Shown piece after piece: positions 9,231 to 29,902 of a stretch of DNA of 39,624 nt. This stretch comes from Ardenticatenia bacterium (lineage in GTDB: Bacteria; Chloroflexota; Anaerolineae; Aggregatilineales; JALXEW01), in contig JALXEW010000261.1 of NCBI GenBank assembly GCA_027069285.1, positions 1 through 39,624 of the forward strand, written 5' to 3'. A model generated the notes under the pieces. It made no database searches and was not told the origin of the DNA. It worked only from the letters and a program-made list of their open reading frames with translations. How positions within the stretch are numbered: position 1 is the stretch's first letter; the number at the start of each line of letters is the position of its first letter. The translations under genes and the position numbers were made by a program.

Positions 9231-11434
9231 CTCACAGGCTCCTGCCCGGCGGCAAACGTCAACATATCGTCACCGGCATCCACCGTGATAAGCGTTCCAG
9301 GCGGGGGATTCTCGCGCAGCAAGAAATCCGCCAGAGGCTCCCGCACATACCTGCGGATTATTCGCCTCAGCGGCCTGGCGCCCCATTCCGGGTGAGTATT
9401 CCTGGATAGCATCCACTCCCTGGCCGCATCGGTAAAGCGCAACGACAAACCCCGTCCGGTGGCCATAGCGGCCTCCTTCTTGAGCATCAGATCCAGGATA
9501 GCCCGCAAATGCTCCGGCGCCAGCGGGTGGAATATCACAATATCGTCCAAACGGTTCAAAAATTCGGGGCGGAAGTGGGCACGCACCTCGGCCATGACCT
9601 TAGCGCGGGTCTCATCGCTCAAGACCGGCTCGGTAAGATAGCGGGCGCCTAAATTACTGGTGAGTATGATCACCGTCTCGCCAAACGGCACGGTATTACC
9701 CTGGCCATCGGTCAGGCGGCCCTCCTCGATCACCTGGAGCAATATATCCAGCACACGAGGATGAGCCTTCTCCACCTCATCGAAGAGCACCACACTATAC
9801 GGCCTGCGCCTCACCCGTTCGGTTAACTGACCGCCGCCCTCATAGCCCACATATCCCGGCGGGGCACCGATCAACCTGCTGACGGTACTCTCATCCTGAT
9901 ACTCCGACATATCGAGCGCGATGATCGCCTCCTCGGAACCGAACATAAACTCGGCCAGAGCCTTTGCCAGCTCGGTCTTACCGACCCCGGTTGGCCCCAG
10001 GAAGAGAAACGCCCCAATGGGACGTTTGGGGTCCTTCAGGCCCACCCGCGCCGCCTTGACCGCCCTGCTCACGGCCATCACCGCCTCATCCTGACCGATC
10101 AGGCGCTCGTGCAAATGCTCCACCATACTGGCATACCGGGTTCGCTCATCCTCGCCGAGCTTGTTAACCGGTATACCTGTCATCTGACTGGCGGCAAGCG
10201 TCACATCCTCGGCATCCACCCGTGTATCCGTCTTAGTGATCGGGCGGAACGGCAATTGCGGCTGAGCACTCATACTCACCAACGCACATGCCCTATGCAG
10301 CAACTGCTCCGCCGAGCGCGGCAATGCAGTCTCCGATAGATAGCGGGACGCGAGCCTGGCGGCCACCTGTAGCGCCTCGTCCTCTATCTGCAGGCCGTAA
10401 TCCACCTCGAGATGCGGCTTCTTAACCCTCAGTATCTCGACCGTCTCATCAACATCGGGCGGCTCCACCTGCAGGCGATGCGTCCGTTCGGCCACAACAG
10501 CCGAAGACTCCAGGCGCGCCTTATAATCCTGATACGTCGTAGTCCCCATGATCACCGGATCATCGCCCAAAAGCGCCTTCTGGAGCTTAACCCCGGCCTT
10601 TGGGAACTCGGCCTTAAACGTCCCGCCGAAAAAGCGATGGATATGCGGCACGAACAAGATACCGCCTTTAGCACGCTTCAGGCCGGATTGGATCGCCATG
10701 ACCGGGTTATCCAGCAAAGCGGCCTCCTCAACGGTCACCAGACGGTCAAGGTCTGTCGGGCCTTTACCTTCCGCCATCAACAGCCCCAGGCTATAGCCCA
10801 AAGTGCGCTTACCGGCGCCTGGCGGCCCGATGAGGATCACATGACGCGGCCACTTCTGCGTCAGGATATTGATCAGCTCGGAAAGCAACCGCTCCCGGAA
10901 GTATACGGCGTGGAATTGCCCCTCCCTGGCGCTGGCGACCACATCCTGAGTAGTAGTTTTACGGCGCAACACCCGCCCGGTCATAATATCCCGCAGCACC
11001 GAAGTAGTAATGCCGTACCTGCGCAAGATCGGGGCGGTTGGGATGCCCGGATCGCACATAGTGCCCAGCGCGTGATCGCTGCCGATCCAGACCTCATCCA
11101 GCGAATGGGCAACACTCAACGCCTCGTCGAGCACCTCGATCAACTTGCGCGAAAGCGGCACACGGCGGTCGCCATCCGCCAGGAAAAACATGCCGCCGTC
11201 AAGGCCGCGATTGGCCTTAGCCGCCCTTTCCACCTCATGTTCCAAATGCTTGAGCTTAAAGCCACGCTCCTCCGAAAGCCGAGCCAGCAAATCAAAAGCG
11301 GCGCATTCCGGGGTGCGGATGAAAGCCAGCAGCAAATACTCCGGCGTCAGCAGGCGAGACCCTGCCAGCTCCGAGGCCACACTCATAGTTTTCGAAAGCT
11401 CTTCGGAAAGCAAGTCCGGGTTAAGGACTGTCAT
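9227..11434 (-). CDS. Clp/Hsp100-family AAA+ protein with Clp_N domain, degenerate first nucleotide-binding domain and intact second
   Basis: Clp_N-like repeats are visible (LTPEYLLLAFIRTPECAAFDLLARL). D2 motifs are intact: FLFLGPTGVGKTELAKALA, VVLFDEVEKAHP and LIGAPPGYVGYEGGGQLTE. The D1 motifs deviate (see findings). I chose the ATG at 11432-11434 (MTVLNPDLLSEEL...). The 79-codon upstream extension in the track is Cys/Arg/Gly-rich and looks non-coding. Confidence 0.85.
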   Translation of the reverse strand: MTVLNPDLLSEELSKTMSVASELAGSRLLTPEYLLLAFIRTPECAAFDLLARLSEERGFKLKHLEHEVERAAKANRGLDGGMFFLADGDRRVPLSRKLIEVLDEALSVAHSLDEVWIGSDHALGTMCDPGIPTAPILRRYGITTSVLRDIMTGRVLRRKTTTQDVVASAREGQFHAVYFRERLLSELINILTQKWPRHVILIGPPGAGKRTLGYSLGLLMAEGKGPTDLDRLVTVEEAALLDNPVMAIQSGLKRAKGGILFVPHIHRFFGGTFKAEFPKAGVKLQKALLGDDPVIMGTTTYQDYKARLESSAVVAERTHRLQVEPPDVDETVEILRVKKPHLEVDYGLQIEDEALQVAARLASRYLSETALPRSAEQLLHRACALVSMSAQPQLPFRPITKTDTRVDAEDVTLAASQMTGIPVNKLGEDERTRYASMVEHLHERLIGQDEAVMAVSRAVKAARVGLKDPKRPIGAFLFLGPTGVGKTELAKALAEFMFGSEEAIIALDMSEYQDESTVSRLIGAPPGYVGYEGGGQLTERVRRRPYSVVLFDEVEKAHPRVLDILLQVIEEGRLTDGQGNTVPFGETVIILTSNLGARYLTEPVLSDETRAKVMAEVRAHFRPEFLNRLDDIVIFHPLAPEHLRAILDLMLKKEAAMATGRGLSLRFTDAAREWMLSRNTHPEWGARPLRRIIRRYVREPLADFLLRENPPPGTLITVDAGDDMLTFAAGQEPVR

Positions 11435-11529
11435 GGCCCAAGTCGCAGCAAAAAACCCCTCGGCGCAACAAGGGTATCCCGAAAACCGGCCACGCACAAG
11501 TAAACAAAACACAAAACCGCCCAAAAACC

Positions 11530-11549
11530 TTGACACATATGGTATTATA
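11530..11549. promoter_or_regulatory. AT-rich promoter island in the clp-like / liv divergent region
   Basis: This is the only AT-rich patch in the 365-bp gap. TTGACA lies on the plus strand at 11530-11535, and a perfect TATAAT lies on the minus strand (attata, 11544-11549). The partner hexamers are weak for both orientations. Confidence 0.35.
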
Positions 11550-11606
11550 TTAATGTGCTCTCTATCGCATCCATGCGGACAACATCTGAGTGCCCGGCCC
11601 ATATCG

Positions 11607-11647
11607 GGACATCCCCGTCCTCGAGTTGGGCGGGGTCCGGTGTTTTT
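11607..11647 (+). terminator. terminator-like hairpin plus T5 run in the leader upstream of the liv binding-protein gene
   Basis: GGAC(AT)CCC(C)GTCC-TCGAGTT-GGGC GGG GTCC can form about 11 bp, and it is followed by GGTGTTTTT (11643-11647). It lies between the TTGACA box and the ATG at 11800. Confidence 0.3.
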
Positions 11648-11799
11648 CCATATCGGTTGCCTCCAAACCACACCATCAGTGGCCTAAAACCGTGCGGCTT
11701 TGGGAAAGGAGGGTAAAAGCAGAGAGGCAAGCCGAAGTTCTCCACCAATCGCCGAAGTCTATTCTCTAATTCTCACCAGCCTATGGGAAGGAGTGAAAG

Positions 11800-17562: not shown

Positions 17563-18479
17563 ACCGCACATTACGTGGCTACGCCCTGGTATTACTGGCG
17601 GCCACGCTGTGGGGTTCACTAGGCCTCTTCTACAACCGGCTGACGGATATATACGGCCTGAGGCCGTTGACGGTGGCCTTCCTGCGTGCCCTATTTACGG
17701 CCTCGATCCTGGTCGCCGTGCGCGTACCGGGGCCGATCCTGACCGCGCACCGCCGGGACATCCCCACGGTGAGCCGCCGGGACATGGTTGGATTTGCCCT
17801 ATTCGGGCTTTTCGGGGTGGCGGCCTTCTACTACGTATACGCGCACGCCATCGATCGGATCGGCATGGGGATTGCCGCAGTCCTGATGTACACCGCCCCG
17901 GCCTGGGTAACGATCATCTCCGCGCTCTTCATGGACGAGCCGCTGACCCCACGCAAAGTGATCGCCCTACTACTTGCCATCGGCGGCGTAGCACTGGTCT
18001 CCCGCGTATACCATCTCGGCTCACTCCGGCTCGACGTGATAGGCACACTAATGGCACTCGCCTCCGGGCTGACTTACGGGCTTTACACCATCTTCAGCAA
18101 GCTGGCGCTGAAACGCTACCAGGTCTGGACGGTAATGACGTACTCGATAGGATTCGGGATGCTCTTCCTGCTCCCGATCCAATCGCCGGATGAGCTTAAG
18201 CGTGCCTTTTCGGATGCCGGGATAATGGCATGGTCGGTAGGCGCCTCGCTGGTGCCGACCTTGATGTCCGGCCTCTGCTTCAACCTGGGGCTGCGTGACA
18301 TCCCGGCGGCCAACGCCAGCATAATCGCCACATTCGAAACCGTGGTAGCCTCGGCCCTGGGCGTGCTATTCCTGGGCGAGACGTGGGAGCAGCCCCAGGT
18401 ACTGGGCGGCGCACTGATCCTCTCAGCCGTCGTAATACTCAGCAGCGCCAGAACTGACGATCAGCACCCGCCGTCCTGA
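17559..18479 (+). CDS. EamA/DMT-family transporter
   Basis: About ten hydrophobic helices arranged as two EamA-like halves (LLAATLWGSLGLFY..., ...GGALILSAVVILS). The ATG overlaps the livF stop (ATGA at 17559-17562). Confidence 0.78.
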   Translation: MNRTLRGYALVLLAATLWGSLGLFYNRLTDIYGLRPLTVAFLRALFTASILVAVRVPGPILTAHRRDIPTVSRRDMVGFALFGLFGVAAFYYVYAHAIDRIGMGIAAVLMYTAPAWVTIISALFMDEPLTPRKVIALLLAIGGVALVSRVYHLGSLRLDVIGTLMALASGLTYGLYTIFSKLALKRYQVWTVMTYSIGFGMLFLLPIQSPDELKRAFSDAGIMAWSVGASLVPTLMSGLCFNLGLRDIPAANASIIATFETVVASALGVLFLGETWEQPQVLGGALILSAVVILSSARTDDQHPPS

Positions 18480-19153
18480 TCCGATCCGAGGGCCGGGTCA
18501 AACGTCGGAGTCGGCCCCGGCGTGGGCGTGGGATTCTCGGCCAGATATTCGGTATAGGCCACATACCCATCGCGCAAGTTGAACACGCGCATATAACCCA
18601 GAAGGCGCAATATAACCAGCGCGTGGGCGGCACGCCTCCCGGAATGGCAATAAACCAGGATCGGGGAGCTGGGATTGGACGGCAACTCGTCCAGGCGGCG
18701 CGTCAACTGGCGCAACGGGATATTGACGGCACCCTCGATATGTCCCTCGGCGAACTCATCCGGCTCCCGCACGTCCACGATGGCATAGTGCACCCCGTTG
18801 ACCTGATCGGCCAGGAACTGCTCGACCGTGATACGATAGCGGCCCTCCGGCAGCGAGCGCAGATAATCATCCGCCGCCATCGCCACCGCCGAGCGTCGCA
18901 CCCACTCCCACGAAGTAGGGTCATCCGGCGCAGCCCTGACCGCATCCTGGGCGGCATCAAAAGCCGCCTCGAAATCACCATCGGCATATGCAGCCTCGGC
19001 CATCTCGACGTATTGGCGGTGATTGGCGGCATTGCCAGGCGCGGCAGTTGGAGTCGGCGTCCCGCTCCGGCACCCGATCATCACAACGGCCCCCAGCATC
19101 AAGATGGCCGCCAGGAACACCCGTGGCCGGCAAATCGTGAGCGACAAAGACAT
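18461..19153 (-). CDS. exported single-domain rhodanese (sulfurtransferase) lipoprotein with helical N-terminal region
   Basis: Signal peptide with lipobox (AVVMIGC). Rhodanese active-site loop ILVYCHSGRRAAHA (C-x4-R). AAGGAG Shine-Dalgarno precedes the ATG. The 3' end overlaps the convergent EamA gene by 19 nt. Confidence 0.8.
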   Translation of the reverse strand: MSLSLTICRPRVFLAAILMLGAVVMIGCRSGTPTPTAAPGNAANHRQYVEMAEAAYADGDFEAAFDAAQDAVRAAPDDPTSWEWVRRSAVAMAADDYLRSLPEGRYRITVEQFLADQVNGVHYAIVDVREPDEFAEGHIEGAVNIPLRQLTRRLDELPSNPSSPILVYCHSGRRAAHALVILRLLGYMRVFNLRDGYVAYTEYLAENPTPTPGPTPTFDPALGSDQDGGC

Positions 19154-19188
19154 CGGCTTAGCTCCTTTGCGATCCCATATCCCACGCC

Positions 19189-19230
19189 AAAAGGTGCTCC
19201 CCCGCCTCCGGGCGGCTGGAGACGGGGGAG
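19189..19230 (-). terminator. rho-independent terminator downstream of the molybdoenzyme catalytic subunit gene
   Basis: On the minus strand: CTCCCCCG-tctccagccgcccggagg-CGGGGGAG, followed by CACCTTTTGG. The 8-bp GC stem is at 19197-19204 / 19223-19230 and the U-run is at 19189-19192. It starts 43 nt after the stop at 19273. Confidence 0.6.
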
Positions 19231-19272: not shown

Positions 19273-22200
19273 TCACACCTTCTCGACTCTCACCATCGTA
19301 TCGTAGAAGCTGGCGCTGCCGCCGATAGGGTCGGTGAGGCACGAGGCAAATACCGCCGGATCCTCGCGCATCACCACATTCGCACAAACCCCGGTAGCCC
19401 GTCTGGCGTCACCCGGCAGCACCTCACCGTTGATAGTCATATCCCTGGCGCCATAAGCCCAGTGGCCATAGTGCCAGCTGAACGCTATCGTGCCCGGACG
19501 GATACCCTCGATGATCTTGACCTTGCCGATCACATCCATATCGTCCTCGCCCAGGCGCCAAACACCATTCTGGTTAGTAGCCGAGGTGATCCGCACCAGG
19601 TCCCCGTCGCTCAGGCCGCGAGACTCGGCATCCTGGCGGTTCATATAGACGTAGTTTTCGGGCATCACCGAGTGCTGTATCCAGTAGCAGCCGGGCGTGC
19701 GGCTCTGGCCGCCGGTGATTTCCTTATAAGTGATCAGCGCCAGATCATAGTCCGAGTCCTCTATCGGGTTACCGGCTGCATCGCGCACCACATCATACAT
19801 CGGCAACCCGGAGAAGTGCTCACCGGTGAAACTATGGCGGCCCTTATAGACATTTTCCACGTAGATCGAGAACATCTTGCCCCACGGGTGGCCGACATAC
19901 CGACCGTTATGGCGCTTATCGAAATTCTCGAACCGACCGCCACGGTTCAGGACGGTGACCATGCGGCGGAACAACTCATCATCGTTGCCGATCGAACGGC
20001 GCCACCGTTCCTCATCGAAGACAGCGCTTGACAGATGGCTGCGGGCGGCGCGGAATATCTCCATCTCGCGCTCATCGGCGGGCGGCACCGCATCGGAGCC
20101 ATCCTCCTTATCGCCAAAAGCTATATTAGCCACGGCCTTCAGGTACCAATCCTCGGCGGCATTGAAATCGAAGCCCTCACCCAGCCCATCGGGGCCATAT
20201 CCGGGCAGGCCGAGCCTTTCGGCGATCGCCAGCATGATGGCCTCCATGCCCAGCGGCTGCTCCTGGCCGAAGACGGTCACCGTACCCGGCAGCGGGTCGA
20301 CTATCGGCTGGCGCACCTTACTCACCTTCGTCATAACGGCGGGGGTGATATGTGGGGTGCCCCAGCGCTCCCAGATCGCGGTATCGGGGAACAGGAAATC
20401 GGCGTACATCGAAGTCTCGCCGATCACGATGTCGCAGGCGAAGAAGAGCGGGATCTTATCCATATCGCGCAAGATGTCGATGGACGGATTACCCGCAGGC
20501 CCGGCGTAGACCGGAGTACCTTTGTGGAGGAATAGTGCCTTGATCGGATACGGATACTGGTCGCCGGCGCTGGGGATGATCTCCTGGTAGACGTTGTTGG
20601 TATAGGGGTAGAAAGGTCGCCTGGCCGGATAACCATCCCGCTGGAAGAGCAAAGTCTTCTCATAAGCGACCTTCTCACGGGTCAGTATGATGCCATAGGA
20701 GCCGAGCTTACCTGGGTGCGTGCTGCTGGACTTCAACTCGAACGGCCCGTGGGCCTTATCGCCAAATTCGTGCCAGTGGCCGCCACCGACCGTCAGGCCG
20801 CCGGTCCAATCGCAGTTGCCGATCAGGATGTTGAGGCAGATGATGGCCTGGGCGTTATAGTAGCCGTTAGTATGCTGAACCGGGCCGCGATATAACTCGG
20901 CGGCGGCGCGTTTACCGTGGCCGGTGAACTCGCGGGCCACCTCCACGATCCGCCGCACCGGGATGCCGCATATCTCCGACCATTCCTCAAGCGTGCGCTC
21001 CTGGGCAACCTCCTTGAGCAGCTGCAAGGCGCTCTTATAGCGCACACGTCCCTCGCGGCCCTCGACTAGCAGGTCGCCCTCGACCGGGTTCTCCTCATCG
21101 TACGGATCGAAGGCCACCAGCTCACCATCCCGCGAGACCACGAACCAGTGATCCGGATCGGCGTCCTCCGGCACCTCCAGGTCGACGTCGGAGGCGCGGA
21201 GCAAGGTAGTCGGGTTACCGTCCTCGTCCAACTTGACCAGATGGGTGGCATTCGACCAGGTTTTCTCGCCATCGGCCAGCGCTGCGGCCTTATTGGCATT
21301 GGCCAGGTACCCGGCGTCGTAGCGCTCATTCTCGATGATCCAGCTTATCATCGCCAGGGCCAGCGCCGCATCGGTACCGGGCTTCACCGGCAGCCACCAC
21401 TTAGCCTTTGCTGCGGTCTTACTCAAGCGCGGGTCTACCACGGCGATCTCCAGATCTGCCTGAGTTATGCCGTAGGTGACCAACTCCGACATCGGGGTGG
21501 GGCCGAAGTTAGCCTCAAACGCGCCGGTGCCGAAGAAGATGACGAACTCAGCGTTGGCAATATCCGGCTTCATATGGGTCTTGCCGCCGCTCCACTTGCC
21601 ATCGCTATACTGATTCGTCATCTGCTGGTAGGCGATATGGTGGGATTGCTCGCAGATAGTAGTATGCTCCCACCAGTTGACCGAGCCGAACGCATCCTTG
21701 AGCCAGCGCTTGGCGAACTCCTTACGTCCGTGCTCGATTCTCCCGGCCATGAAGGCGAACTGATTGTTACGCGGCCCCAGGTCCGGGAGATCGGGGTCTA
21801 TCAGCAGATCGAGATGATCGGCATGTGCCCGCTGGAACTCCTCCAGGGTCATCTCGCCGCTGACCACCTTAGCCGAGTCCTCCTTGAGCGACGCCATCAA
21901 ATCAGGATCGCGCACCGCCCAGATCTCGGCCAGGCCTGGTGTTGAAGTCCCATCGGCGAAGGTAGCCCCGTTGACGATCTCGTCAATCGCCTGATCGAAG
22001 TCTATAACCTCCCACTGCCCGCTGCCGCGCGGACCTGCCCGCTTGAGCACGGCAGTGATGCGATAGGGGTCGTACTCACTTTGCACGCCCGACTGCCCCT
22101 TGGGGCACAGCTTGGCATCAACCGGCGCGGCCTCATCCGGCGGGGTCTCATAATTTAGATGCGGCAACATATTCATCGGGCTATAGGGGTTGCCGTCAAT

Positions 22201-22437
22201 TTTCACCATCACCCCGTCGTAGACTTTGGCCTTGATAGTGCAGGAAGTGTGACACTGGAGGCAGGCGCTATAGATGATATGCTCAGGCTTATTAAGCGGA
22301 TACTCCCCATCCTGGCCGTTGGCACGCTGAGCAGAATCGGCCAGGACACTGAACACGCGATTCAACTTGGAAGCGAGCGCCGCACATCCCCCTGCTACCG
22401 CCGAAATCTTCAAGAAGTCACGTCGTGTGATCTCCAT
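19273..22437 (-). CDS. Tat-exported molybdopterin (Mo-bisPGD) oxidoreductase catalytic subunit, TtrA/SrdA/PsrA-like
   Basis: Twin-arginine signal MEITRRDFLKISAVAGG. N-terminal [4Fe-4S] motif CLQCHTSC...(x48)...C (KLCPKGQ). Candidate Mo-ligand segment HTTICEQSHH. Blocks I recall as TtrA-like: GNPYSPM, KTWSNATHLV, AEDWYLKAVANIAFG, LNRGGRFENFD. 1054 aa, close to the roughly 1000-aa TtrA class. Confidence 0.8.
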   Translation of the reverse strand: MEITRRDFLKISAVAGGCAALASKLNRVFSVLADSAQRANGQDGEYPLNKPEHIIYSACLQCHTSCTIKAKVYDGVMVKIDGNPYSPMNMLPHLNYETPPDEAAPVDAKLCPKGQSGVQSEYDPYRITAVLKRAGPRGSGQWEVIDFDQAIDEIVNGATFADGTSTPGLAEIWAVRDPDLMASLKEDSAKVVSGEMTLEEFQRAHADHLDLLIDPDLPDLGPRNNQFAFMAGRIEHGRKEFAKRWLKDAFGSVNWWEHTTICEQSHHIAYQQMTNQYSDGKWSGGKTHMKPDIANAEFVIFFGTGAFEANFGPTPMSELVTYGITQADLEIAVVDPRLSKTAAKAKWWLPVKPGTDAALALAMISWIIENERYDAGYLANANKAAALADGEKTWSNATHLVKLDEDGNPTTLLRASDVDLEVPEDADPDHWFVVSRDGELVAFDPYDEENPVEGDLLVEGREGRVRYKSALQLLKEVAQERTLEEWSEICGIPVRRIVEVAREFTGHGKRAAAELYRGPVQHTNGYYNAQAIICLNILIGNCDWTGGLTVGGGHWHEFGDKAHGPFELKSSSTHPGKLGSYGIILTREKVAYEKTLLFQRDGYPARRPFYPYTNNVYQEIIPSAGDQYPYPIKALFLHKGTPVYAGPAGNPSIDILRDMDKIPLFFACDIVIGETSMYADFLFPDTAIWERWGTPHITPAVMTKVSKVRQPIVDPLPGTVTVFGQEQPLGMEAIMLAIAERLGLPGYGPDGLGEGFDFNAAEDWYLKAVANIAFGDKEDGSDAVPPADEREMEIFRAARSHLSSAVFDEERWRRSIGNDDELFRRMVTVLNRGGRFENFDKRHNGRYVGHPWGKMFSIYVENVYKGRHSFTGEHFSGLPMYDVVRDAAGNPIEDSDYDLALITYKEITGGQSRTPGCYWIQHSVMPENYVYMNRQDAESRGLSDGDLVRITSATNQNGVWRLGEDDMDVIGKVKIIEGIRPGTIAFSWHYGHWAYGARDMTINGEVLPGDARRATGVCANVVMREDPAVFASCLTDPIGGSASFYDTMVRVEKV

Positions 22438-22440
22438 CGC

Positions 22441-23568
22441 TTACGCTCCTTCAGGCTGATTCAGGGCCAGCCGATCCCACAGGAACGAATAAACCGCCAG
22501 TCCCAGGGCGATCACACCCACCGCCACCAGCCACTCCGTCAGGCTTGGGACGTACACAGTGCTCAGGCGCGGCGAGTAATACGCCTCGGTGATCCCCTCC
22601 AGCTCCGGCACCGAGAGGACCGGGATGAGCAGATTCGAGCGTGCCGCCACGAACCCGATCATCAGCGCCACGCTCCCCAGACCCACGATCACCCGGTTGC
22701 CACGGAAGAAGACCAGTGCCACCAGCGGGATCACCATCCCCACCAGCACCTGCAGCCCCCAGAAGAGCCATGAATCGGGGCCGTACATCGCCAGGTTGAG
22801 CGCATCCTTGACCGCCGGGGCGCCGCCGTAGAGCATAGTCTCGATGGCAGCGAACTCCATCAGGGCCTCGAAGATCAACAGGCCCAGGGTGATCCCGGTC
22901 ACCCAGCGGAGCATCTCATCTCGCCCCTCGGCCTTCCACAAAAAGGCCAGGATGAAAGTCAGGGCAGCGCCCGCAGTCACCAATCCGGCCACCAGAAAGC
23001 GGATGGGGAACAGGCCGGTATTCCAGGCCGGGCGGGAGCCAAGCACGCCCATCAGCGCCCCCTCGGTACCGGCAAACGCCACTGCCAGCACCAAAGCCAC
23101 AGCTCCCAGCCACTTAGCTGCCGTCGCATTGCCGCCGTAGTCGAGCACGAGCTGTACCACGACGATCACGAAAAACCCGGCGTACACCCATGACATACGG
23201 CCCATCAGCGAAGTCGAGCTTGGGCGGAAGAACAACTCCGGGAACCGCTCCATATGGCCCAGATCGAACCACACCAGCAGCAAGCCCGCTGCCAGGGCGA
23301 TCAGGGAGCCGACCGCCGTCACCCGGCGCAGCGGCTTAAACACCTCGATCTCGAAGACGGATCCCAGTGCCGAGAAGACATACAATCCGGCGGCAAGCCC
23401 GCCCAGATAAGTATAGAGCACGATCCACAAGCCCCATGGGATCAGGCTACCGTGATTTATCACCTCGTGTCCCATAGTCAGGCGCTGGACGAGGCCTACC
23501 AGGCCGGCCACAATGAGCACCGCCAGCACGACCCAGTACACGATTCGCATTGGCGTCGCGTTAGCCAT
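22441..23568 (-). CDS. NrfD/PsrC-family integral membrane quinol-interacting subunit
   Basis: A polytopic hydrophobic protein located between the Fe-S and catalytic subunit genes. The ATG at 23566-23568 is preceded by GGGAGG, which overlaps the upstream TAA (TAAGGGAGGTTGGTCATG). The track's TTG start at 23574 is two codons longer. Confidence 0.8.
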   Translation of the reverse strand: MANATPMRIVYWVVLAVLIVAGLVGLVQRLTMGHEVINHGSLIPWGLWIVLYTYLGGLAAGLYVFSALGSVFEIEVFKPLRRVTAVGSLIALAAGLLLVWFDLGHMERFPELFFRPSSTSLMGRMSWVYAGFFVIVVVQLVLDYGGNATAAKWLGAVALVLAVAFAGTEGALMGVLGSRPAWNTGLFPIRFLVAGLVTAGAALTFILAFLWKAEGRDEMLRWVTGITLGLLIFEALMEFAAIETMLYGGAPAVKDALNLAMYGPDSWLFWGLQVLVGMVIPLVALVFFRGNRVIVGLGSVALMIGFVAARSNLLIPVLSVPELEGITEAYYSPRLSTVYVPSLTEWLVAVGVIALGLAVYSFLWDRLALNQPEGA

Positions 23569-23580
23569 GACCAACCTCCC

Positions 23581-24306
23581 TTACGTGAGGTAATAAACCG
23601 ACGGGTTGGTGCCCAGTTCTTCCTTGAGCCGGAAGGCCTGGCGCCGTCCCAGCAGTTCGGATACGAGACTATCGGGGTCATTGAGGTCGCCGAAGTACCG
23701 TGCCCGTCCGATGCAATCGGTGATACAGGCCGGCAACAACCCCTCGTTGAGCCTGTGCAGGCAGAAGTGGCATTTGCGCACATTACCTATCGGCGAGCCA
23801 CCTGCAGAGCGGTTATGCTCATGGCCGTACTCGAACTCGATATTCTCGTACTCCTGGGGGTTAGGGGTATTGCCGGTATACGTCTCGCCGAAGTCGAACA
23901 TGCGGGCGCCGTACGGACAGGCCGCGATGCAATAGCGGCAGCCGATGCACACCTCATAGTCCACCACCACTATGCCGTCCTCCCGCTTATACGTGGCGCC
24001 CACCGGGCAGACATCCACGCACGGCGGATTCTGGCAGTGCATACACGGCCTGGGCACGAACACCCTACGCACATTAGGGTACTTGCCGACCTCATCCTGC
24101 AAGACGATGTTATAAGCGACCTCCGGTGGAGTCTTATTCTCAGATTTGCACGCCACGGTACAGGCATCGCACCCGACGCACTTGGTCAGGTCTATGACCA
24201 TGACCCAATGTCGCTCCTCCACCGGCTTTTGGAGAGCGCGTTGGATGTCGTCCATCATCCTCAAGATCGCGTTCTCCATCTCCAGCACACGTGGAATATC
24301 TGGCAT
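23581..24306 (-). CDS. four-cluster 4Fe-4S ferredoxin-type electron-transfer subunit (TtrB/PsrB/NrfC-like)
   Basis: Four Cys groups are present: [37 protein letters not shown] and CHFCLHRL...PACITDC. GAGAGGTG Shine-Dalgarno precedes the ATG at 24304-24306. Confidence 0.9.
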
Positions 24307-24445
24307 GGCTCACCTCTCTTGGAGATATGCGAAAGCCGGCTGTCACAGTGATCCGAACGCCAACCCGGCACGGCAGTCCCATTCCAGGCCGCGCCGTTGA
24401 GCGCCCACTACATGTTCAAGTTATCACAAACACGCGGGGATTTTT

Positions 24446-24475
24446 ATCGGGCAAAACCTGATAGTTTTCGCCGAT
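24446..24475. promoter_or_regulatory. 12-6-12 imperfect inverted repeat between the response-regulator gene and the molybdoenzyme operon (operator candidate)
   Basis: ATCGGGCAAAAC-ctgata-GTTTTCGCCGAT, with 10 of 12 arm positions complementary. It lies 28-57 nt past the regulator stop and about 140-170 nt upstream of the Fe-S subunit ATG. Confidence 0.35.
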
Positions 24476-24502
24476 ATGTAGTGATTTTCTTGACAAATGA
24501 GG

Positions 24503-25153
24503 TCATTCCGAAAGGAGTCCCCGTGCGACCGCATACCGCACCAGCTGAACCCGGCTGGTGAGGCCCAACTTATGCATCGCGCGGCTACGGTAAGTATCCA
24601 CGGTATTGGCGCTCAGGTGGAGCTTCTCCGCGATCTCCTGGCTGGTATACCCCCAGGCGACAAGAGTGATCACCTCCTGTTCTCGCTCGCTCAACCTCTC
24701 CCAGGGGTCAGCTCCGGTGCTATGCGGGATTATATCCCCCAGCAGCGAGGGCACCATCTCCCGATCCACATATATCTGCCCGCGATACACCTGGCGTATT
24801 GCCGCGACCACCTCCTCGCCATCGGCCTGCTTCAGCACATAACCGGCCCCGCCGCCTGCCAGCACCTGTTTAGCGTACTCCTCATCGCAGTGCATAGTCA
24901 AGACCAGGACACGGGTTTTATCGGAAAACTCCCTCATCCTGGCCAAGACGGCCAGTCCGCCGAGATTCGGCATAGAAATATCGAGCAGCAACACATCTGG
25001 CCGGAGTTCCCTCACCTTTTGCAAGGCCTCACGTCCGTCGGACGCCTCGCCGATCACGGTTATATCGGAATATCGCTCCAAAAGCAGCCTCAGACCGGCG
25101 CGGAAGACCGCGTGATCGTCCGCGATCAGGACGCGGATTGTCTCCCGTTCCAT
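24503..25153 (-). CDS. NarL/FixJ-family response regulator (REC + LuxR-type HTH)
   Basis: IRVLIADDHAVFRAGL...DVLLLDISMPNLGG (receiver Asp) and LSEREQEVITLVAWGYTSQEIAEKLHLSANTVDTYRSRAMHKLGL (LuxR HTH). GGGAGGTGG Shine-Dalgarno lies inside the 3' end of the upstream kinase gene. Confidence 0.92.
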   Translation of the reverse strand: MERETIRVLIADDHAVFRAGLRLLLERYSDITVIGEASDGREALQKVRELRPDVLLLDISMPNLGGLAVLARMREFSDKTRVLVLTMHCDEEYAKQVLAGGGAGYVLKQADGEEVVAAIRQVYRGQIYVDREMVPSLLGDIIPHSTGADPWERLSEREQEVITLVAWGYTSQEIAEKLHLSANTVDTYRSRAMHKLGLTSRVQLVRYAVARGLLSE

Positions 25154-26592
25154 CCCTCACCACCTCCCTGGGCACGGATCGGCACGCGCACGAACACCGT
25201 AGTGCCCCTTCCCGGAGCGGATTCCACCACCACCTGTCCGCCGACGAGATTTGCCCGTTCCATCATACCCTGCAGACCGAGATTCCGGGCCTTATCGACC
25301 GCATTGGGATCGAAGCCGCGCCCGCCATCCTCGACAATGGCGACACACTCATCCCCTCGTCGCTCAAGCACCACATCGACGCGACCCGCCCCAGAGTGCC
25401 TGGCGGCGTTGGTCAGCGCCTCCTGGACTATCCTATAGACGGCAGTTTCCACGGTGGGGGCCAGCCTCACCCCGTCCATCCCAAAAGTCTCGAACGAGAC
25501 CTGCACCTCGAACGTGCGGCCCCAATCGTAAAGGTACCTGCGCACGGCGGCCACCAGTCCCAGATCATCAAGTACCGGAGGGCGCAACTCATGGGCCAGC
25601 ATCCTCACCCCTTCCAGCGTCTGGCCGACCAGATCGCGCAACTCATCCAGCCTGGCGATATTAGCACAATCATTGCAAATCGCCATCGCGTTGGAAAGCC
25701 CCATCTTGATGGCCGTGAGCGCCTGACCGGTATCATCGTGCAACTCGCGGGAGATACGTCTACGTTCCTCCTCCTGCGCAGTGATGATCTTATCTATCAA
25801 CAAAGCCCGCAGCCTCTCGCGCTCCTCACGCTCATGGGCCGCCCTTTCCAGCTCGACCGTCATACGGTTGAAAGTGCGCGTCAGAGCGCCGATCTCATCA
25901 TCGGCAAACGGCACTATCCTCGCCCCAAAATCGCCGGCGGCCACCGACTTTGCAGCACCGGCCAGCCTGCGGATGGGATCGGTTATCATCCAGGTCAGCC
26001 CGGCGGCGATCAAAATGCCCAGCAGGGCCACCAGGGCCGTAGTAAGCGCAAACTGCCTGGTCGTATCCTCAACAGTCGCCTTCATAGCCGCCTCACCCAG
26101 CCCCAACCTCACCGTATAGCCATCCCCGACCGGAACCGGCACCGCCACATCCCAGATCACACCCTCGTTAGTCCGCAGCCTACGCATACGGTACTGTTCC
26201 GACCTATCCACGGAGTTGGCATCCACCAGCCCGCGAGGGAAACCATCACCGAAAGTGTGGGCCAGGGGAGAGCCATCAGAGCCTAATACAAAGGCATACC
26301 TGACGGTATCGCCGTTATTCATGGTGGTATCGCGCAGCAGATTATGCAGCCCGTAGAGGTCGTCCAGCAGTATATAATCGGTTGCGCGTGCCGCCAGGTC
26401 GCGTGCCAGCGCGACCCCACGCCTTTGCAGCTCGATCCGCAGGGAACTTTCCTGGATCGCGCGCATCTGGAGGGTCAGGCTGATCCCAAGCAACAATATC
26501 AGCCCCAACGCCATACCCAGTATCTTTATCCTGACGCTTACCGAGATCAGTTGACGCCACAGCGATGCCACCAGATGCCGCAGCCCCATCAT
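25126..26592 (-). CDS. membrane sensor histidine kinase (2 TM, ~150-aa external domain, HAMP, HisKA_3, HATPase_c)
   Basis: HAMP DPIRRLAGAAKSVAAGDFGARI...DEIGALTRTFNRM. HisKA_3 H-box ISRELHDDTGQALTAI. N-box EALTNAARHSGA. G-boxes VEDGGRGFD and GLQGMMERA. Confidence 0.85.
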   Translation of the reverse strand: MMGLRHLVASLWRQLISVSVRIKILGMALGLILLLGISLTLQMRAIQESSLRIELQRRGVALARDLAARATDYILLDDLYGLHNLLRDTTMNNGDTVRYAFVLGSDGSPLAHTFGDGFPRGLVDANSVDRSEQYRMRRLRTNEGVIWDVAVPVPVGDGYTVRLGLGEAAMKATVEDTTRQFALTTALVALLGILIAAGLTWMITDPIRRLAGAAKSVAAGDFGARIVPFADDEIGALTRTFNRMTVELERAAHEREERERLRALLIDKIITAQEEERRRISRELHDDTGQALTAIKMGLSNAMAICNDCANIARLDELRDLVGQTLEGVRMLAHELRPPVLDDLGLVAAVRRYLYDWGRTFEVQVSFETFGMDGVRLAPTVETAVYRIVQEALTNAARHSGAGRVDVVLERRGDECVAIVEDGGRGFDPNAVDKARNLGLQGMMERANLVGGQVVVESAPGRGTTVFVRVPIRAQGGGEGWNGRQSAS

Positions 26593-27506
26593 GGCGATAC
26601 CAGTGCCTCACGGTGTATCAGCCTGACCCCATCGTATGCCGAATCGTCCACCATCACAAACCTATCCACGCCTATAGCCGCCAGCGCCTCCTGGCCCTCC
26701 GGCGTCTCGTGCATCGTCAGGAATATCCGGCGCAGCTCCTCGATCCAGCTCTCGGTCGCGTTCGGCCCCACGACAACCGGCGGAATGCCAAACGGCGGCG
26801 ATTCGTGTATGACCCGCACTCTATCCCCCAACTCCGGATCGCGTTCCAGCGCGAACCGGTACACCAGACTATCAACAGCCGCCCCATCCGCGATCCTATC
26901 GGCGACCGCACGGATCGCGTTATCGTGCGAATACGTATAGAAAACGTGGCCGAAGAAAGATTGCGGGTCATATCCCAGCTGCGTCAGCAAATATATCGGA
27001 TAGGCGCGGCCTGTAGTCGAGATGGGGTCGGTAAAGACGAAAGTAGCGCCCTGCAGGTCCTCGATCGATCGGGCATCGCTATCCGATGGCACGATCAAAA
27101 GCGAGCGGTACACCGTCTCGCCGTTGACCTCCGGCGCCACCAGCAATCGCATCCCGAACGCATCGTGGCCGTACACATACCCGCTGGTGCACACAAACGC
27201 CAAATCCACCTGGCCAGCCTCCAGCAGGTTATTGATCTCCATATAAGTGCGCCGCTGAACCAGCTCCACCGGGCGACCGAGGCGCTCGCCCAAATACCCC
27301 AACAGCAACCGGTAACTTTCGGCGGTGCCCTCAGGGGAGATCACGGCGGCGACCGCCACCCTCAGCGGCAGATCATCCATCTCCACCCGCTCTATAACAG
27401 TGGGGTCTACATCGTTGAAGTCTATATAAGGCGCATCACCTACGGCAGGGACGCAACCAACCACAAGGGGCAACGTCAAAAGGATTGCGATGACGAAATA
27501 CCTCAT
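26589..27506 (-). CDS. PhnD-like (Phosphonate-bd family) extracytoplasmic solute-binding lipoprotein, no cognate ABC permease or ATPase nearby
   Basis: Lipobox LPLVVGC. Pattern typical of the PhnD/Phosphonate-bd family: YRLLLGYLGERLGRPVELVQRRTYMEINNLLEAGQVDLAF...YRSLLIVPSDS..SIEDLQG..FVFTDPISTTG...SHDNAIRAVADRIADGAAVDS. 4-nt overlaps with both flanking kinase genes. Confidence 0.78.
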   Translation of the reverse strand: MRYFVIAILLTLPLVVGCVPAVGDAPYIDFNDVDPTVIERVEMDDLPLRVAVAAVISPEGTAESYRLLLGYLGERLGRPVELVQRRTYMEINNLLEAGQVDLAFVCTSGYVYGHDAFGMRLLVAPEVNGETVYRSLLIVPSDSDARSIEDLQGATFVFTDPISTTGRAYPIYLLTQLGYDPQSFFGHVFYTYSHDNAIRAVADRIADGAAVDSLVYRFALERDPELGDRVRVIHESPPFGIPPVVVGPNATESWIEELRRIFLTMHETPEGQEALAAIGVDRFVMVDDSAYDGVRLIHREALVSP

Positions 27507-29902
27507 CTTGCGAACCTGGCTTCCAGCTTCTGCAGCTCCTCGACGGCGTAACGACCGGTATCGATCTCAGGCTCGCCCACCTCGCCCACAGGCGGGGCGG
27601 TCAAAGGCAAAGTGAAATACACCGTAGTGCCGTAGCCGGCACGGCTCTCCAGCCGGATCGAGCCGCCATGTGCCTCGATCACCTTACGGGCGATATAAAG
27701 CCCCTGGCCGGTGCCGGGAACGTCCAAGACCTTACCATCAGGCGTCCTGGGCACCCCACGGAAGAAACGTCGCCACACCAGCGGCAAATCCTCCGTGGAT
27801 ATGCCCACCCCGGTATCCGAGACCATAAACGAGGCGGAATTTCGCTTACTGCGTTCGAGCCTCAACATGATCTCGCCGCCCGGCAGCGAATATTTGACCG
27901 AATTATCGATCAGATTCCCAATGGCCCACCGCAGCCTGCGTTCATCCCCCAGCACATACATATCGCGATCCAGTATCTGTACCTGGATGCTCAATCCCGC
28001 CTGCTCTGCGGCCTCCTTCCAATCCCGCACCAGGTCCCACATCAGATTCTCGGTCGAGATCGGGCGCCTGCCGATGCGGAGCGAATCGGCATCCAGGCTC
28101 GCCAGGTCGCGGAACTCCAGGATCAGGCGGGCCAGCTCGATGGCATTGCGATGCACCCCCTCCACAAACGCCCTCAAAGCCGACGATTGACCGTTGGCGG
28201 CCCTCACAAGCTCCATACCCTGCTCATGCAACTCGGTCAATGGCGCCTGCAACTCACGGGCCATCCGGGCCAGCAACTGTTCCCGTGCCTGCTCATCCAT
28301 AGCCTGTCGGGTCACATCGCGCAACACGATCACCGTGCCGATTCGCTCTCGCGGCCTGCCAGATTCTTCCACCATCACGGCGGCGGCCTGAGCGCTCAGC
28401 ACCCGCTCATCGACGACCACCCGCGTCTCATCGCCGGTCAGATATATCCCCGGCGCCATCGCCGGTCCGAGCGCATCCGTCACCTGGGCGGTCAGCCGAT
28501 TGAGGTCGCTATGGCGCACCACCCGCCTGGAGCCGAGCAACTCGCGTGCCGCATCATTTATCAGCACCACCCGCCCATCCATATCCAACAGCACCAGCCC
28601 ATCGGGGATCGAGCGGAGCACCGCGCTGAGCCTGGCCACCTCGCTCCGTTGGGCATAAAGGCTCAGCCGCATCAAGTGAGCACGCATCTCCCACTGATCG
28701 GCCATACGGTCGATCGCGTGGCCCAACGCCCCCACCTCATCGATCGGCTGCATACCGGTTCGGCGGCCCAAATCCCCGGCACCCAGGGCCTCGGCAGTCT
28801 CGCGAATACGTTCGAGCCTGCGGGTGAAAACCGCCGTGATCGCGACGAACCCGGCGACCATCAAAGCGGCCACCCCGGCGGCAAAAGTCAGACTGATCAC
28901 ACGGCGGCTGGTCTCGGTGGCGAAGAAAATGTTATTCGGCACAAAAGTCGCCAATACCCCAAGCGTCTCGCCCCGGACGACGAACGGCATATAAGCCACC
29001 TGGTAAGGGACGCCGCCGAGCGTGAAGGCACGTATCGGGACAGAATCGGTGGCGCTCAACGCACCCTCAAAAGTCTGCTCATCCACCTCCAGTGCCGAGA
29101 ACCCCTCCTCCGGCTCCGGCAACGTGGTGGCCAGGAGCCGTCCATCCGGCCCGTACAGCGCCAGCTCGGTGAGGGCGCCACTTCGCAACTCCCACAGCAG
29201 CTGGCTAAGGCGCGACCCGACCATGATCACGCCGAGCATCTCACCTTCCCAAACCACCGGGGCGGCGGTATAGAGCGCATAACCGCGCGTGGTGCGCACC
29301 AGGCCTGCGGGCCTGACGTCCAGATCGGGATCATCGCCTATGAAAGCCGCCACCGGCAGCAAAGTGCTCAGATCGGTACCGGTGCTGATGGCGAAATCAA
29401 CGCCCCCCTCCTGATCCGTTCTTTGCAGCCCCAGTATCTCGATCCCGTCAGAATCCGTCACTATCACGCTATCCACGCCCTCATTGGCCGCTATCGGCTC
29501 GATAAGGCGCTGAAGGGAGTCTATCCCCCGGCTGCGGACGGCCTGTGGGATACCATTCGTAAAGGCGATCAGGCGCAATACGGCCAGATGCTCGGCCTCG
29601 AAATCCCCCAAACGCATGACGGCCCCGTGGCAAGCCTCGAGCAGCTGTTGGGTCTGTGCCTCTTTGACCCCTTCTGCCACGGCACCCGTGACCCAATACG
29701 TGCCGACGGTGGCGAAAGCGATCAAAACCGCCGCCAGCGGCATCAGCACCCATACCCGTGCCGACACATACCTCGTTCCGGCCCCACCTCCCCGGCGCCC
29801 TTTACCGCGCGACGGTGGATGCTCGGCCCTCTGTATCGCCGGATACTCCCCATACGATCCCGGCTGGCCACGATGCTCTGGTGCGGATTCACGTCCGCTC
29901 AC
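27503..29902 (-). CDS. membrane sensor kinase-like protein (large external domain, HAMP, PAS, HisKA-like helix lacking the conserved His, intact HATPase_c)
   Basis: TM helices at about aa 50-75 and 335-360 flank a ~265-aa external domain. HAMP RRLERIRETAEALGAGDLGRR...DEVGALGHAIDRM. PAS IPDGLVLLDMDGRVVLINDAARELLG. N-box IGNLIDNSVKYS, G1 VSDTGVGI, G2 GTGQGLYIARKV. The GTG start shares one nt with the upstream TAG, and the start is uncertain. Confidence 0.8.
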   Translation of the reverse strand: MSGRESAPEHRGQPGSYGEYPAIQRAEHPPSRGKGRRGGGAGTRYVSARVWVLMPLAAVLIAFATVGTYWVTGAVAEGVKEAQTQQLLEACHGAVMRLGDFEAEHLAVLRLIAFTNGIPQAVRSRGIDSLQRLIEPIAANEGVDSVIVTDSDGIEILGLQRTDQEGGVDFAISTGTDLSTLLPVAAFIGDDPDLDVRPAGLVRTTRGYALYTAAPVVWEGEMLGVIMVGSRLSQLLWELRSGALTELALYGPDGRLLATTLPEPEEGFSALEVDEQTFEGALSATDSVPIRAFTLGGVPYQVAYMPFVVRGETLGVLATFVPNNIFFATETSRRVISLTFAAGVAALMVAGFVAITAVFTRRLERIRETAEALGAGDLGRRTGMQPIDEVGALGHAIDRMADQWEMRAHLMRLSLYAQRSEVARLSAVLRSIPDGLVLLDMDGRVVLINDAARELLGSRRVVRHSDLNRLTAQVTDALGPAMAPGIYLTGDETRVVVDERVLSAQAAAVMVEESGRPRERIGTVIVLRDVTRQAMDEQAREQLLARMARELQAPLTELHEQGMELVRAANGQSSALRAFVEGVHRNAIELARLILEFRDLASLDADSLRIGRRPISTENLMWDLVRDWKEAAEQAGLSIQVQILDRDMYVLGDERRLRWAIGNLIDNSVKYSLPGGEIMLRLERSKRNSASFMVSDTGVGISTEDLPLVWRRFFRGVPRTPDGKVLDVPGTGQGLYIARKVIEAHGGSIRLESRAGYGTTVYFTLPLTAPPVGEVGEPEIDTGRYAVEELQKLEARFAR

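Follow-up and report, generated by a model that had tools for sequence, protein, structure and literature searches.

Arsenate reductases that resemble tetrathionate reductase (Ttr) have been proposed or reported in Pyrobaculum, Anaeromyxobacter PSR-1, Geobacter OR-1 and Limisphaera, and such enzymes, as well as their pairing with ArrTSR regulators and ars genes, are already in print (PMC5492636, PMC7331816, PMC11462812). In Melioribacter roseus, a TtrBCA enzyme is encoded together with ArrTSR and arsRPCB (MROS_1063-1076; Gavrilov et al. 2017, PMC5492636), and transcription of its ttrA is negligible without arsenate and rises with arsenate. In Chrysiogenes arsenatis, the ArrX-ArrS-ArrR system governs the canonical arsenate reductase ArrAB; ArrX binds arsenate with a dissociation constant of 1 μM and phosphate with one of 150 μM, and does not bind thiosulfate, tetrathionate or selenate (Badilla et al. 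2018, PMC5908839). A 'Ttr' B-A pair is known from the arsenate reducer Deferribacter desulfuricans, and Chloroflexota 'ttrA' transcripts are present in arsenic-releasing paddy soil. Here we describe a locus in contig JALXEW010000261.1 (assembly GCA_027069285.1) of the Chloroflexota member Ardenticatenia bacterium, analysed over a stretch of 39,624 nucleotides (nt), hereafter the window. The locus consists of the genes of a molybdoenzyme complex, in the order B-C-A, and of an upstream sensor module, X-S-R. We assign a probability of about one half to the reading that it encodes an ArrXSR-controlled, menaquinol-dependent, Ttr-like (non-Arr) respiratory arsenate reductase. To the published work we add the exclusion of the enzyme from TtrA proper on five features (score, clade, B Tat signal, sensor type and active-site motif), statistics on gene context, and an unexplained pairing with a rhodanese in Chloroflexota.

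The enzyme genes are on the minus strand and comprise an iron-sulfur (Fe-S) subunit gene (B, 23581-24306, 241 amino acids (aa), supported by its open reading frame (ORF) and PF13247), the gene of an NrfD/PsrC-type membrane anchor (C, 22441-23574, 377 aa, PF03916) and the gene of a catalytic subunit of the molybdenum/tungsten bis-pyranopterin guanine dinucleotide (Mo/W-bisPGD) type with a twin-arginine translocation (Tat) signal (A, 19273-22437, 1054 aa). C starts with TTG and has an alternative ATG 6 nt further downstream; the B-C spacer is 6 nt, or 12 nt from the ATG, and the C-A spacer is 3 nt, in agreement with the 3-12 nt given by a first-pass annotation of this DNA. In a profile search, the Pfam matches of A, B and C all exceeded their cut-offs; A matched PF10518 (Tat signal), PF04879, PF00384 and PF01568, so that all five families named in that annotation (these last three, PF13247 and PF03916) were recovered. 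The ORFs and Pfam families confirm its description of a three-gene, BCA-ordered, Tat-exported molybdoenzyme complex.

The N-terminus of A is MEITRRDFLK, which contains the Tat motif RRDFLK, and the four cysteines of the FS0 cluster (C59, C62, C66 and C111) are each at least 90% conserved among 17 relatives. The segment HTTIC262EQS aligns by HMMER with HSSVC of Shewanella ArrA (PDB 6CZ7), placing Cys262 opposite chain residue 153, which is native Cys193, the Mo ligand; ArrA residue numbering was checked against the RGRY 163-166 motif given in PMC13685797. The FS0 cluster and the cysteine at the Mo-ligand position, both noticed in the first reading of the sequence, were borne out in this way. 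In the same alignment, Arg233 and His258 of A correspond to ArrA Arg165 and His189. The active-site segments of A, EHTTICEQSHHIA and AGRIEHGRKEF, resemble those of an enzyme embedded among ars genes on a Citrobacter arsenatis plasmid (EHTNICELSHHIA and SGRIVKTRKDF), whereas genuine TtrA has AHGAYCGLAYRAG around the ligand and no upstream GR motif. The motif EHT-x-ICE-x-SHH is found in several clades of the TtrA/SrdA lineage and therefore is not substrate-specific; the earlier statement that the substrate cannot be read from the sequence holds for the catalytic subunit alone.

B contains 16 cysteines in four cluster motifs (43/46/49/53, 88/91/96/100, 120/123/126/130 and 179/182/194/198), which mark it as a four-[4Fe-4S] electron-transfer subunit. 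Its N-terminus has no RR motif and no upstream start is possible, whereas Klebsiella TtrB, to which it is 43% identical, has SKRQFLQ. C matched PF03916 at 108 bits, has approximately 9-10 hydrophobic segments by a crude hydropathy count, is 23% identical to TtrC over a part of its length, and is predicted to be a quinol-oxidising NrfD/PsrC-type anchor. B also exceeds the NCBIfam cut-off for the DsrO equivalog (206 vs 200 bits), and in three unrelated Ttr-like clusters the NCBI annotation pipeline (PGAP) gives B the name 'DsrO' (L018:5199-5969, L021:3927-4676 and L022:3903-4673).

Trees were built with references from annotated plasmids (Klebsiella ttrSR/ttrBCA as named by PGAP, the ars-embedded BCA cluster of Citrobacter arsenatis, and haloarchaeal, Azospirillum and Pseudomonas clusters), with E. 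coli phsA as outgroup and with representatives of 50%-identity clusters that a whole-library search had returned; they were computed without SrdA and the Anaeromyxobacter PSR-1, Geobacter OR-1 and PAE1265 sequences. FastTree and IQ-TREE agreed in placing A in a core clade and Klebsiella TtrA in its sister clade, with support of 98-99 for both, and in grouping A with TtrA-lineage proteins against the PhsA outgroup. Within the core clade A is 45-80% identical to other members, and a search with two conserved peptide patterns gave 575 confirmed relatives in species-representative genomes from more than 20 phyla. By these comparisons A falls within the lineage of TtrA, SrdA and the alternative arsenate reductases among complex iron-sulfur molybdoenzymes. 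Anaeromyxobacter PSR-1, Geobacter OR-1, Pyrobaculum aerophilum PAE1265 and Bacillus selenatarsenatis SrdBCA are, as described in the literature, of the same lineage and BCA-type.

Three named enzymes were rejected as identities for A. Salmonella and Klebsiella TtrBCA-TtrSR share with this locus the BCA order, a Tat-exported A of approximately 1020-1050 aa, a four-cluster B, an NrfD-type C, the position of the Cys ligand, PF12974-type sensing and a LuxR-type regulator, and among NCBIfam models that of TtrA scored highest. However, that score was 522 bits against a cut-off of 1750 (NF011567), identity to PGAP-named TtrA is 29.6%, and A lies in a separate clade; TtrB, unlike the present B, is provided with a Tat signal, which Duval et al. 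2008 take to mark the Ttr clade, and the active-site segments and the sensor differ. The TtrA-like family call of the first-pass annotation is accordingly right at the level of the lineage (best model and trees) but not as a TtrA equivalog. Canonical ArrA, as in ArrAB(C) of Shewanella ANA-3 (PDB 6CZ7), shares the superfamily, the Mo-ligand Cys, the equivalents of Arg165 and His189 and, in some hosts, XSR-type regulation, but it is excluded by 121 bits against a cut-off of 1600 (NF041714), AGRI in place of RGRY, AB or CAB rather than BCA order, and a length of approximately 850 vs 1054 aa. PsrA/PhsA is excluded by 202 vs 694 bits, 27% identity over the N-terminal third and the BCA order. Gene order, trees and scores thus agree with a TtrA/SrdA-type architecture and not with an ABC-ordered Psr/Phs enzyme, as had been proposed, and the phylogeny puts A in the TtrA lineage and not with ArrA, yet in a clade separate from TtrA. 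The use of an ArrA-clade placement as the counter-case, as in the first reading, overlooks the arsenate reductases within the TtrA lineage itself (PMC7331816, PMC5492636, PMC11462812).

One pointer to a substrate lies in the sensor module. Upstream of B on the same strand are the genes of a NarL/FixJ/LuxR-type response regulator (R, 24503-25153, 216 aa, PF00072 and PF00196), a membrane histidine kinase (S, 25126-26592) with the Pfam architecture transmembrane segment, sCache_3_2, transmembrane segment, HAMP, HisKA_3 and HATPase_c, and an ArrX-type periplasmic oxyanion-binding lipoprotein (X, 26589-27506, 305 aa, lipobox VVGC). X matched PF12974 at 221 bits. Compared with proteins of solved structure, it matched C. 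arsenatis ArrX (PDB 6X6B) co-linearly at E 1e-65 (225 bits, approximately 45% identity), AioX at 5e-35 (125 bits), and PhnD or PtxB at no more than 57 bits (PhnD, 4e-6); identity to likely ArxX/AioX proteins on plasmids was 32-37%. Six of the seven pocket residues of AioX (Y88, C106, Y131, S161, S163, H192 and D210) are identical in X, with S163 replaced by Thr. X thus retains the pocket Cys typical of the arsenic-sensing subfamily, which is reported in AioX, ArxX and ArrX but not in PhnD (PMC5908839). The X proteins of other clade loci are 34-68% identical to X, a range that includes C. arsenatis ArrX, and those of loci with a rhodanese and of loci with ars genes carry identical pocket residues.

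By pairwise BLAST, TtrS showed no similarity to X (E 3.3) or to S; in genuine TtrS the PF12974 domain is fused to a HisKA kinase. S is conserved beside X in related loci; in a Melioribacter-like locus, a kinase of HisKA type bears the same sCache_3_2 sensor. R is 28% identical to TtrR and has no AAA+ domain; ArrR is CitB/FixJ-like and likewise without this domain (PMC5908839). The locus therefore shares with C. arsenatis a free PF12974 protein, a membrane kinase and a FixJ/LuxR regulator lacking AAA+, and we interpret X-S-R as a putative three-component oxyanion sensor of the AioX/ArxX/ArrX type, the ligand of X being inferred. In C. arsenatis this system governs canonical ArrAB, whereas here it is predicted to govern a BCA enzyme of the TtrA lineage. 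As X is ArrX-like, the regulatory context points to an arsenic oxyanion. XSR regulators are common to Arr and Arx, close relatives that work in both directions in vitro (PMC13685797). The LuxR-type two-component system with a binding protein upstream, and the exported rhodanese downstream, are present as first described, and the 'PhnD-like sensor component' is indeed a PF12974 binding protein, but one of ArrX type rather than PhnD- or TtrS-like. The context had been taken to indicate an oxidised sulfur compound or a chalcogen oxyanion, with arsenate named as a substrate only among the compounds to assay; the sensor instead indicates an arsenic oxyanion, while the argument from the rhodanese keeps its force for a minority reading.

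We compared the locus with a Melioribacter-like one (L179) found in a scan of Melioribacteraceae, in which arsR-arsP-arsC-acr3 is followed by X-S-R-porin-B-C-A. Its gene order matches the published description (PMC5492636), from which L179 is probably the M. roseus ttr locus. The A protein of L179 falls in the same core clade (support 98-99), with identities to the present locus of 45% for A, 59% for B and 32% for C; also common to both are the X-S-R-...-B-C-A order and the sCache_3_2 domain. In M. roseus the regulator is of the sigma-54 type, the kinase is of the HisKA type, the gene of an OmpL-like porin precedes B and an ars operon adjoins; in the present locus the regulator is of LuxR type, the kinase is of the HisKA_3 type and a rhodanese lipoprotein is encoded, but neither a porin gene nor adjacent ars genes are present. 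The X gene of L179 (5999-6870) matches in two overlapping pieces, suggesting a frameshift or sequencing error, and this split fits the remark in the paper that the gene appeared only on reannotation. The porin gene of L179 is at 10560-11654; OmpL-like beta-barrel porin genes (PF07642) stand directly before B in diderm hosts in 16 of 134 clade loci, and are absent from Chloroflexota loci.

These 134 non-redundant loci, of which 37 are from Chloroflexota and 97 from other phyla, were the basis of a context survey. B precedes A in nearly all of them and C lies between the two in about two thirds; of the 83 loci whose upstream sequence exceeds 6 kb, 48 contain an X homologue. The gene order of the locus recurs in distant phyla and its arrangement is therefore no chance juxtaposition. 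Genes for Acr3 or for ArsA, ArsB, ArsC or ArsD lie within 9 kb, and often adjacent, in 15 loci from 10 named phyla, including those of Deferribacter abyssi, Tectomicrobia, Rokubacteria, Trueperaceae and a Clostridia metagenome-assembled genome; in D. abyssi, a B-A pair of the clade stands beside acr3-arsC-arsR. Acr3 was near A in 12 of the 134 loci, compared with a roughly estimated 1% by chance. No selenium- or antimony-related genes were seen in the 134 contexts. The 39.6-kb window holds no ars genes; an ArsR-Acr3 locus is present on another contig (C288) of the same genome. The genome also encodes a Psr/Phs-type catalytic subunit, 36% identical to PhsA and followed by a B-type subunit, whose gene is split over two contig ends (C91, 21484-23022, and C271, 3-1263). 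We count the ArsR-Acr3 locus, the Psr/Phs-type enzyme and the hydrothermal-vent origin of the metagenomes that contain the stretch as favouring an arsenate substrate.

Under the arsenate reading, the locus would encode an inducible, quinol-dependent terminal reductase acting outside the cytoplasmic membrane. Lipoprotein X would bind the oxyanion outside the membrane and signal through the sCache domain of S; S would phosphorylate R, and R would activate the B-C-A promoter. A would be folded in the cytoplasm with Mo/W-bisPGD and FS0, and its Tat export would carry the signal-less B along, after which A and B would dock on C. From menaquinol oxidised by C, electrons would reach the Cys262-ligated metal by way of B's four clusters and FS0, and there reduce As(V) to As(III). 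Any arsenite entering the cell would be handled by the ArsR-Acr3 locus on the other contig, and the rhodanese lipoprotein may be an accessory typical of the lineage. The co-export of B with A, the contact between X and S, and the quinone are proposed by analogy with the established DmsAB/PsrAB-type enzymes and the TorT-TorS and AioX-AioS systems. Chloroflexota use low-potential menaquinone.

Several observations weigh against an arsenate substrate. Residues that bind arsenate in ArrA are only partly kept in A, with RGRY changed to AGRI, Lys198 to His and Tyr210 unmatched. In the X family, ligand specificity is not determined by the pocket residues (PMC5908839); therefore the 45% identity to ArrX is no proof of arsenate binding. 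The induction of M. roseus ttrA was not statistically significant, and its authors favour a Psr/Phs-type enzyme as the main arsenate reductase (PMC5492636). We found no literature report of a purified and assayed member of the clade. Adjacency to ars genes, seen in 15 of 97 loci elsewhere, occurs in none of the 37 Chloroflexota loci (Fisher p 0.011). An exported rhodanese, in contrast, accompanies 20 of these 37 (p 3e-6), and in some loci the rhodanese gene lies within an X-S-R-Rhd-B-C-A unit, between R and B. Close homologues, 58-60% identical, are present in Thermosulfurimonas dismutans and Dissulfurirhabdus thermomarina, which disproportionate sulfur. Finally, proteomics of Desulfolithobacter dissulfuricans detected a 'Ttr-type' TtrBCA (A of 1024 aa) only during thiosulfate disproportionation; the same restriction applied to a sigma-54 regulator, encoded two genes upstream, and to a downstream protein of 215 aa.

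The rhodanese of the present locus is a lipoprotein encoded at 18461-19153 on the minus strand (230 aa, lipobox MIGC). It matched PF00581 at 75 bits, contains a stretch resembling tetratricopeptide repeats, and has the active-site loop CHSGRR, of the six-residue sulfurtransferase type, which points to sulfane sulfur rather than to arsenate. In 33 of the 134 loci a rhodanese homologue immediately precedes B or follows A; this holds for 13 of the 17 loci whose identity is at least 60%, making the rhodanese the most typical partner of the closest relatives. On contig C222 of the same genome (L177:3394-10166), a module of multihaem cytochrome c, four-cluster Fe-S and NrfD subunits adjoins a LysR regulator and a tandem-rhodanese protein whose domains are 44-47% identical to the rhodanese of the locus.

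The alternative that survives best is that the enzyme reduces thiosulfate, tetrathionate, polysulfide or a similar inorganic compound of sulfur; the rhodanese would then deliver or remove sulfane sulfur, and X would have diverged from ArrX to bind a sulfur oxyanion. We consider this unlikely, but well worth keeping in view. The sulfurtransferase Sud, which serves the polysulfide reductase of Wolinella, provides a model for such a role of a rhodanese on the outer side of the membrane. The rhodanese pairing, its loop type, the homologues in sulfur disproportionators and the Desulfolithobacter expression pattern all favour this alternative. The sequencing runs found to contain the stretch are only hydrothermal-vent metagenomes of one study, with no RNA runs listed, and this origin also suits a sulfur substrate. 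PF12974 domains are, moreover, known to sense tetrathionate in TtrS and thiosulfate in ThsS (PMC5408782). However, X falls in the arsenic-sensing AioX/ArxX/ArrX subfamily with no detectable similarity to the TtrS sensor domain, ArrX bound neither thiosulfate nor tetrathionate, and the pocket residues of X are alike whether a rhodanese or ars genes stand nearby. The active site of A is unlike that of genuine TtrA, and for sulfur compounds a Psr/Phs-type enzyme is already available in the genome. Next to clade members, ars operons can themselves contain small rhodanese genes (L124 and L131), and the Desulfolithobacter TtrA, at best a candidate member of the clade, was not recovered by three alignment-seeded scans or by a Desulfobulbaceae-seeded protein search.

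An enzyme for another oxyanion resembling arsenate or phosphate, with X tuned to it, is improbable. Selenate (as for SrdBCA), antimonate, tellurate and thioarsenate are the candidates. The TtrA/SrdA/alternative-Arr lineage is catalytically versatile (PMC7331816, PMC10100899), the BCA order is that of srdBCA, and the EHT-x-ICE-x-SHH motif gives no preference among substrates; a thioarsenate substrate would suit both an arsenic-type sensor and a sulfane-sulfur transferase. On the other side, ars genes recur in the surveyed contexts and selenium or antimony genes do not, ArrX did not bind selenate, and arsenate, unlike selenate, supported growth of Limisphaera, which has a Ttr-like complex. A more specific form of this idea, in which the Chloroflexota branch uses a thio-arsenic substrate such as monothioarsenate, with the rhodanese stripping or transferring sulfur and the molybdoenzyme reducing the arsenic centre, seems to us a long shot. 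Monothioarsenate is abundant in sulfidic vent fluids, and we know of no respiratory thioarsenate pathway of this kind described so far. Least probable is the reverse reaction, an Arx-like anaerobic arsenite oxidase feeding the quinone pool: the kinship of Arr and Arx and the aerobic habit of some clade hosts, such as Litorilinea aerophila, would allow it, but X is nearer to arsenate-binding ArrX than to arsenite-binding AioX or likely ArxX, R is of the ArrR type without AAA+, in contrast to the sigma-54 activators AioR and ArxR, and a correlation of Arx with ubiquinone has been reported, whereas Chloroflexota use low-potential menaquinone.

The remaining features of the locus concern its expression and annotation. 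In the R-B control region (24307-24502, minus strand), a 13-6-13 inverted repeat (24445-24476) may serve as a regulator site; a simple motif search did not find it in the intergenic regions of related loci. In a scan for consensus promoters and terminators, counts were at chance level, with no promoter-like match above chance in the R-B region. The 119-nt spacer between A and the rhodanese gene contains a GC-rich hairpin (19187-19230, minus strand) with a stem of 11-13 bp followed by a U4 run, which may be a weak terminator or attenuator; its folding stability does not exceed that of shuffled sequences (z -0.6), nor was it flagged in the scan for consensus terminators. Antisense shadow ORFs on the plus strand cover B (23254-24351, 365 aa) and X (26565-27551, 328 aa), and a gene caller that prefers the longest ORF would choose them over the real genes.

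Three further variants were seen among the relatives of A. Two of the cluster representatives, P0126 (1470 aa) and P0127 (1489 aa), are single ORFs in which an N-terminal NrfD domain is fused to a full catalytic subunit, explained either as C-A fusions or as read-through of a 3-nt gap. On Citrobacter arsenatis plasmid NZ_CP037863.1 (28794-33598, L018), a BCA cluster of the TtrA sister clade lies among ars genes, and near-identical sister-clade clusters lie amid arsRDABC/arsC on IncF-type plasmids of Citrobacter, Enterobacter, Salmonella and E. coli; these may encode a plasmid-borne respiratory arsenate reductase in Enterobacteriaceae. On a Halomicrococcus plasmid (226667-231683, L023), genes for an Fe-S subunit of 590 aa and a catalytic subunit of 1080 aa stand without an anchor gene and have rhodanese and TauE genes upstream; the pair resembles the 'large-B' subgroup of Duval et al. 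2008.

Automatic annotation calls genes of this kind tetrathionate reductase (in JGI names) or DsrO. The DsrO naming of the B subunits is a systematic misannotation that could inflate gene counts for sulfate reduction. In Chloroflexota, the pairing with a rhodanese alone has no explanation in current models. If the clade reduces arsenate, the X-S-R module would be a compact candidate for an arsenate biosensor, and sulfur-cycle inferences drawn from 'ttrA' counts would be inflated. The capacity for arsenic mobilisation would in that case be far wider than arrA surveys suggest, extending through Chloroflexota, Desulfobacterota, Nitrospirota, Bacteroidota, Planctomycetota and other phyla, and through vent and subsurface communities.

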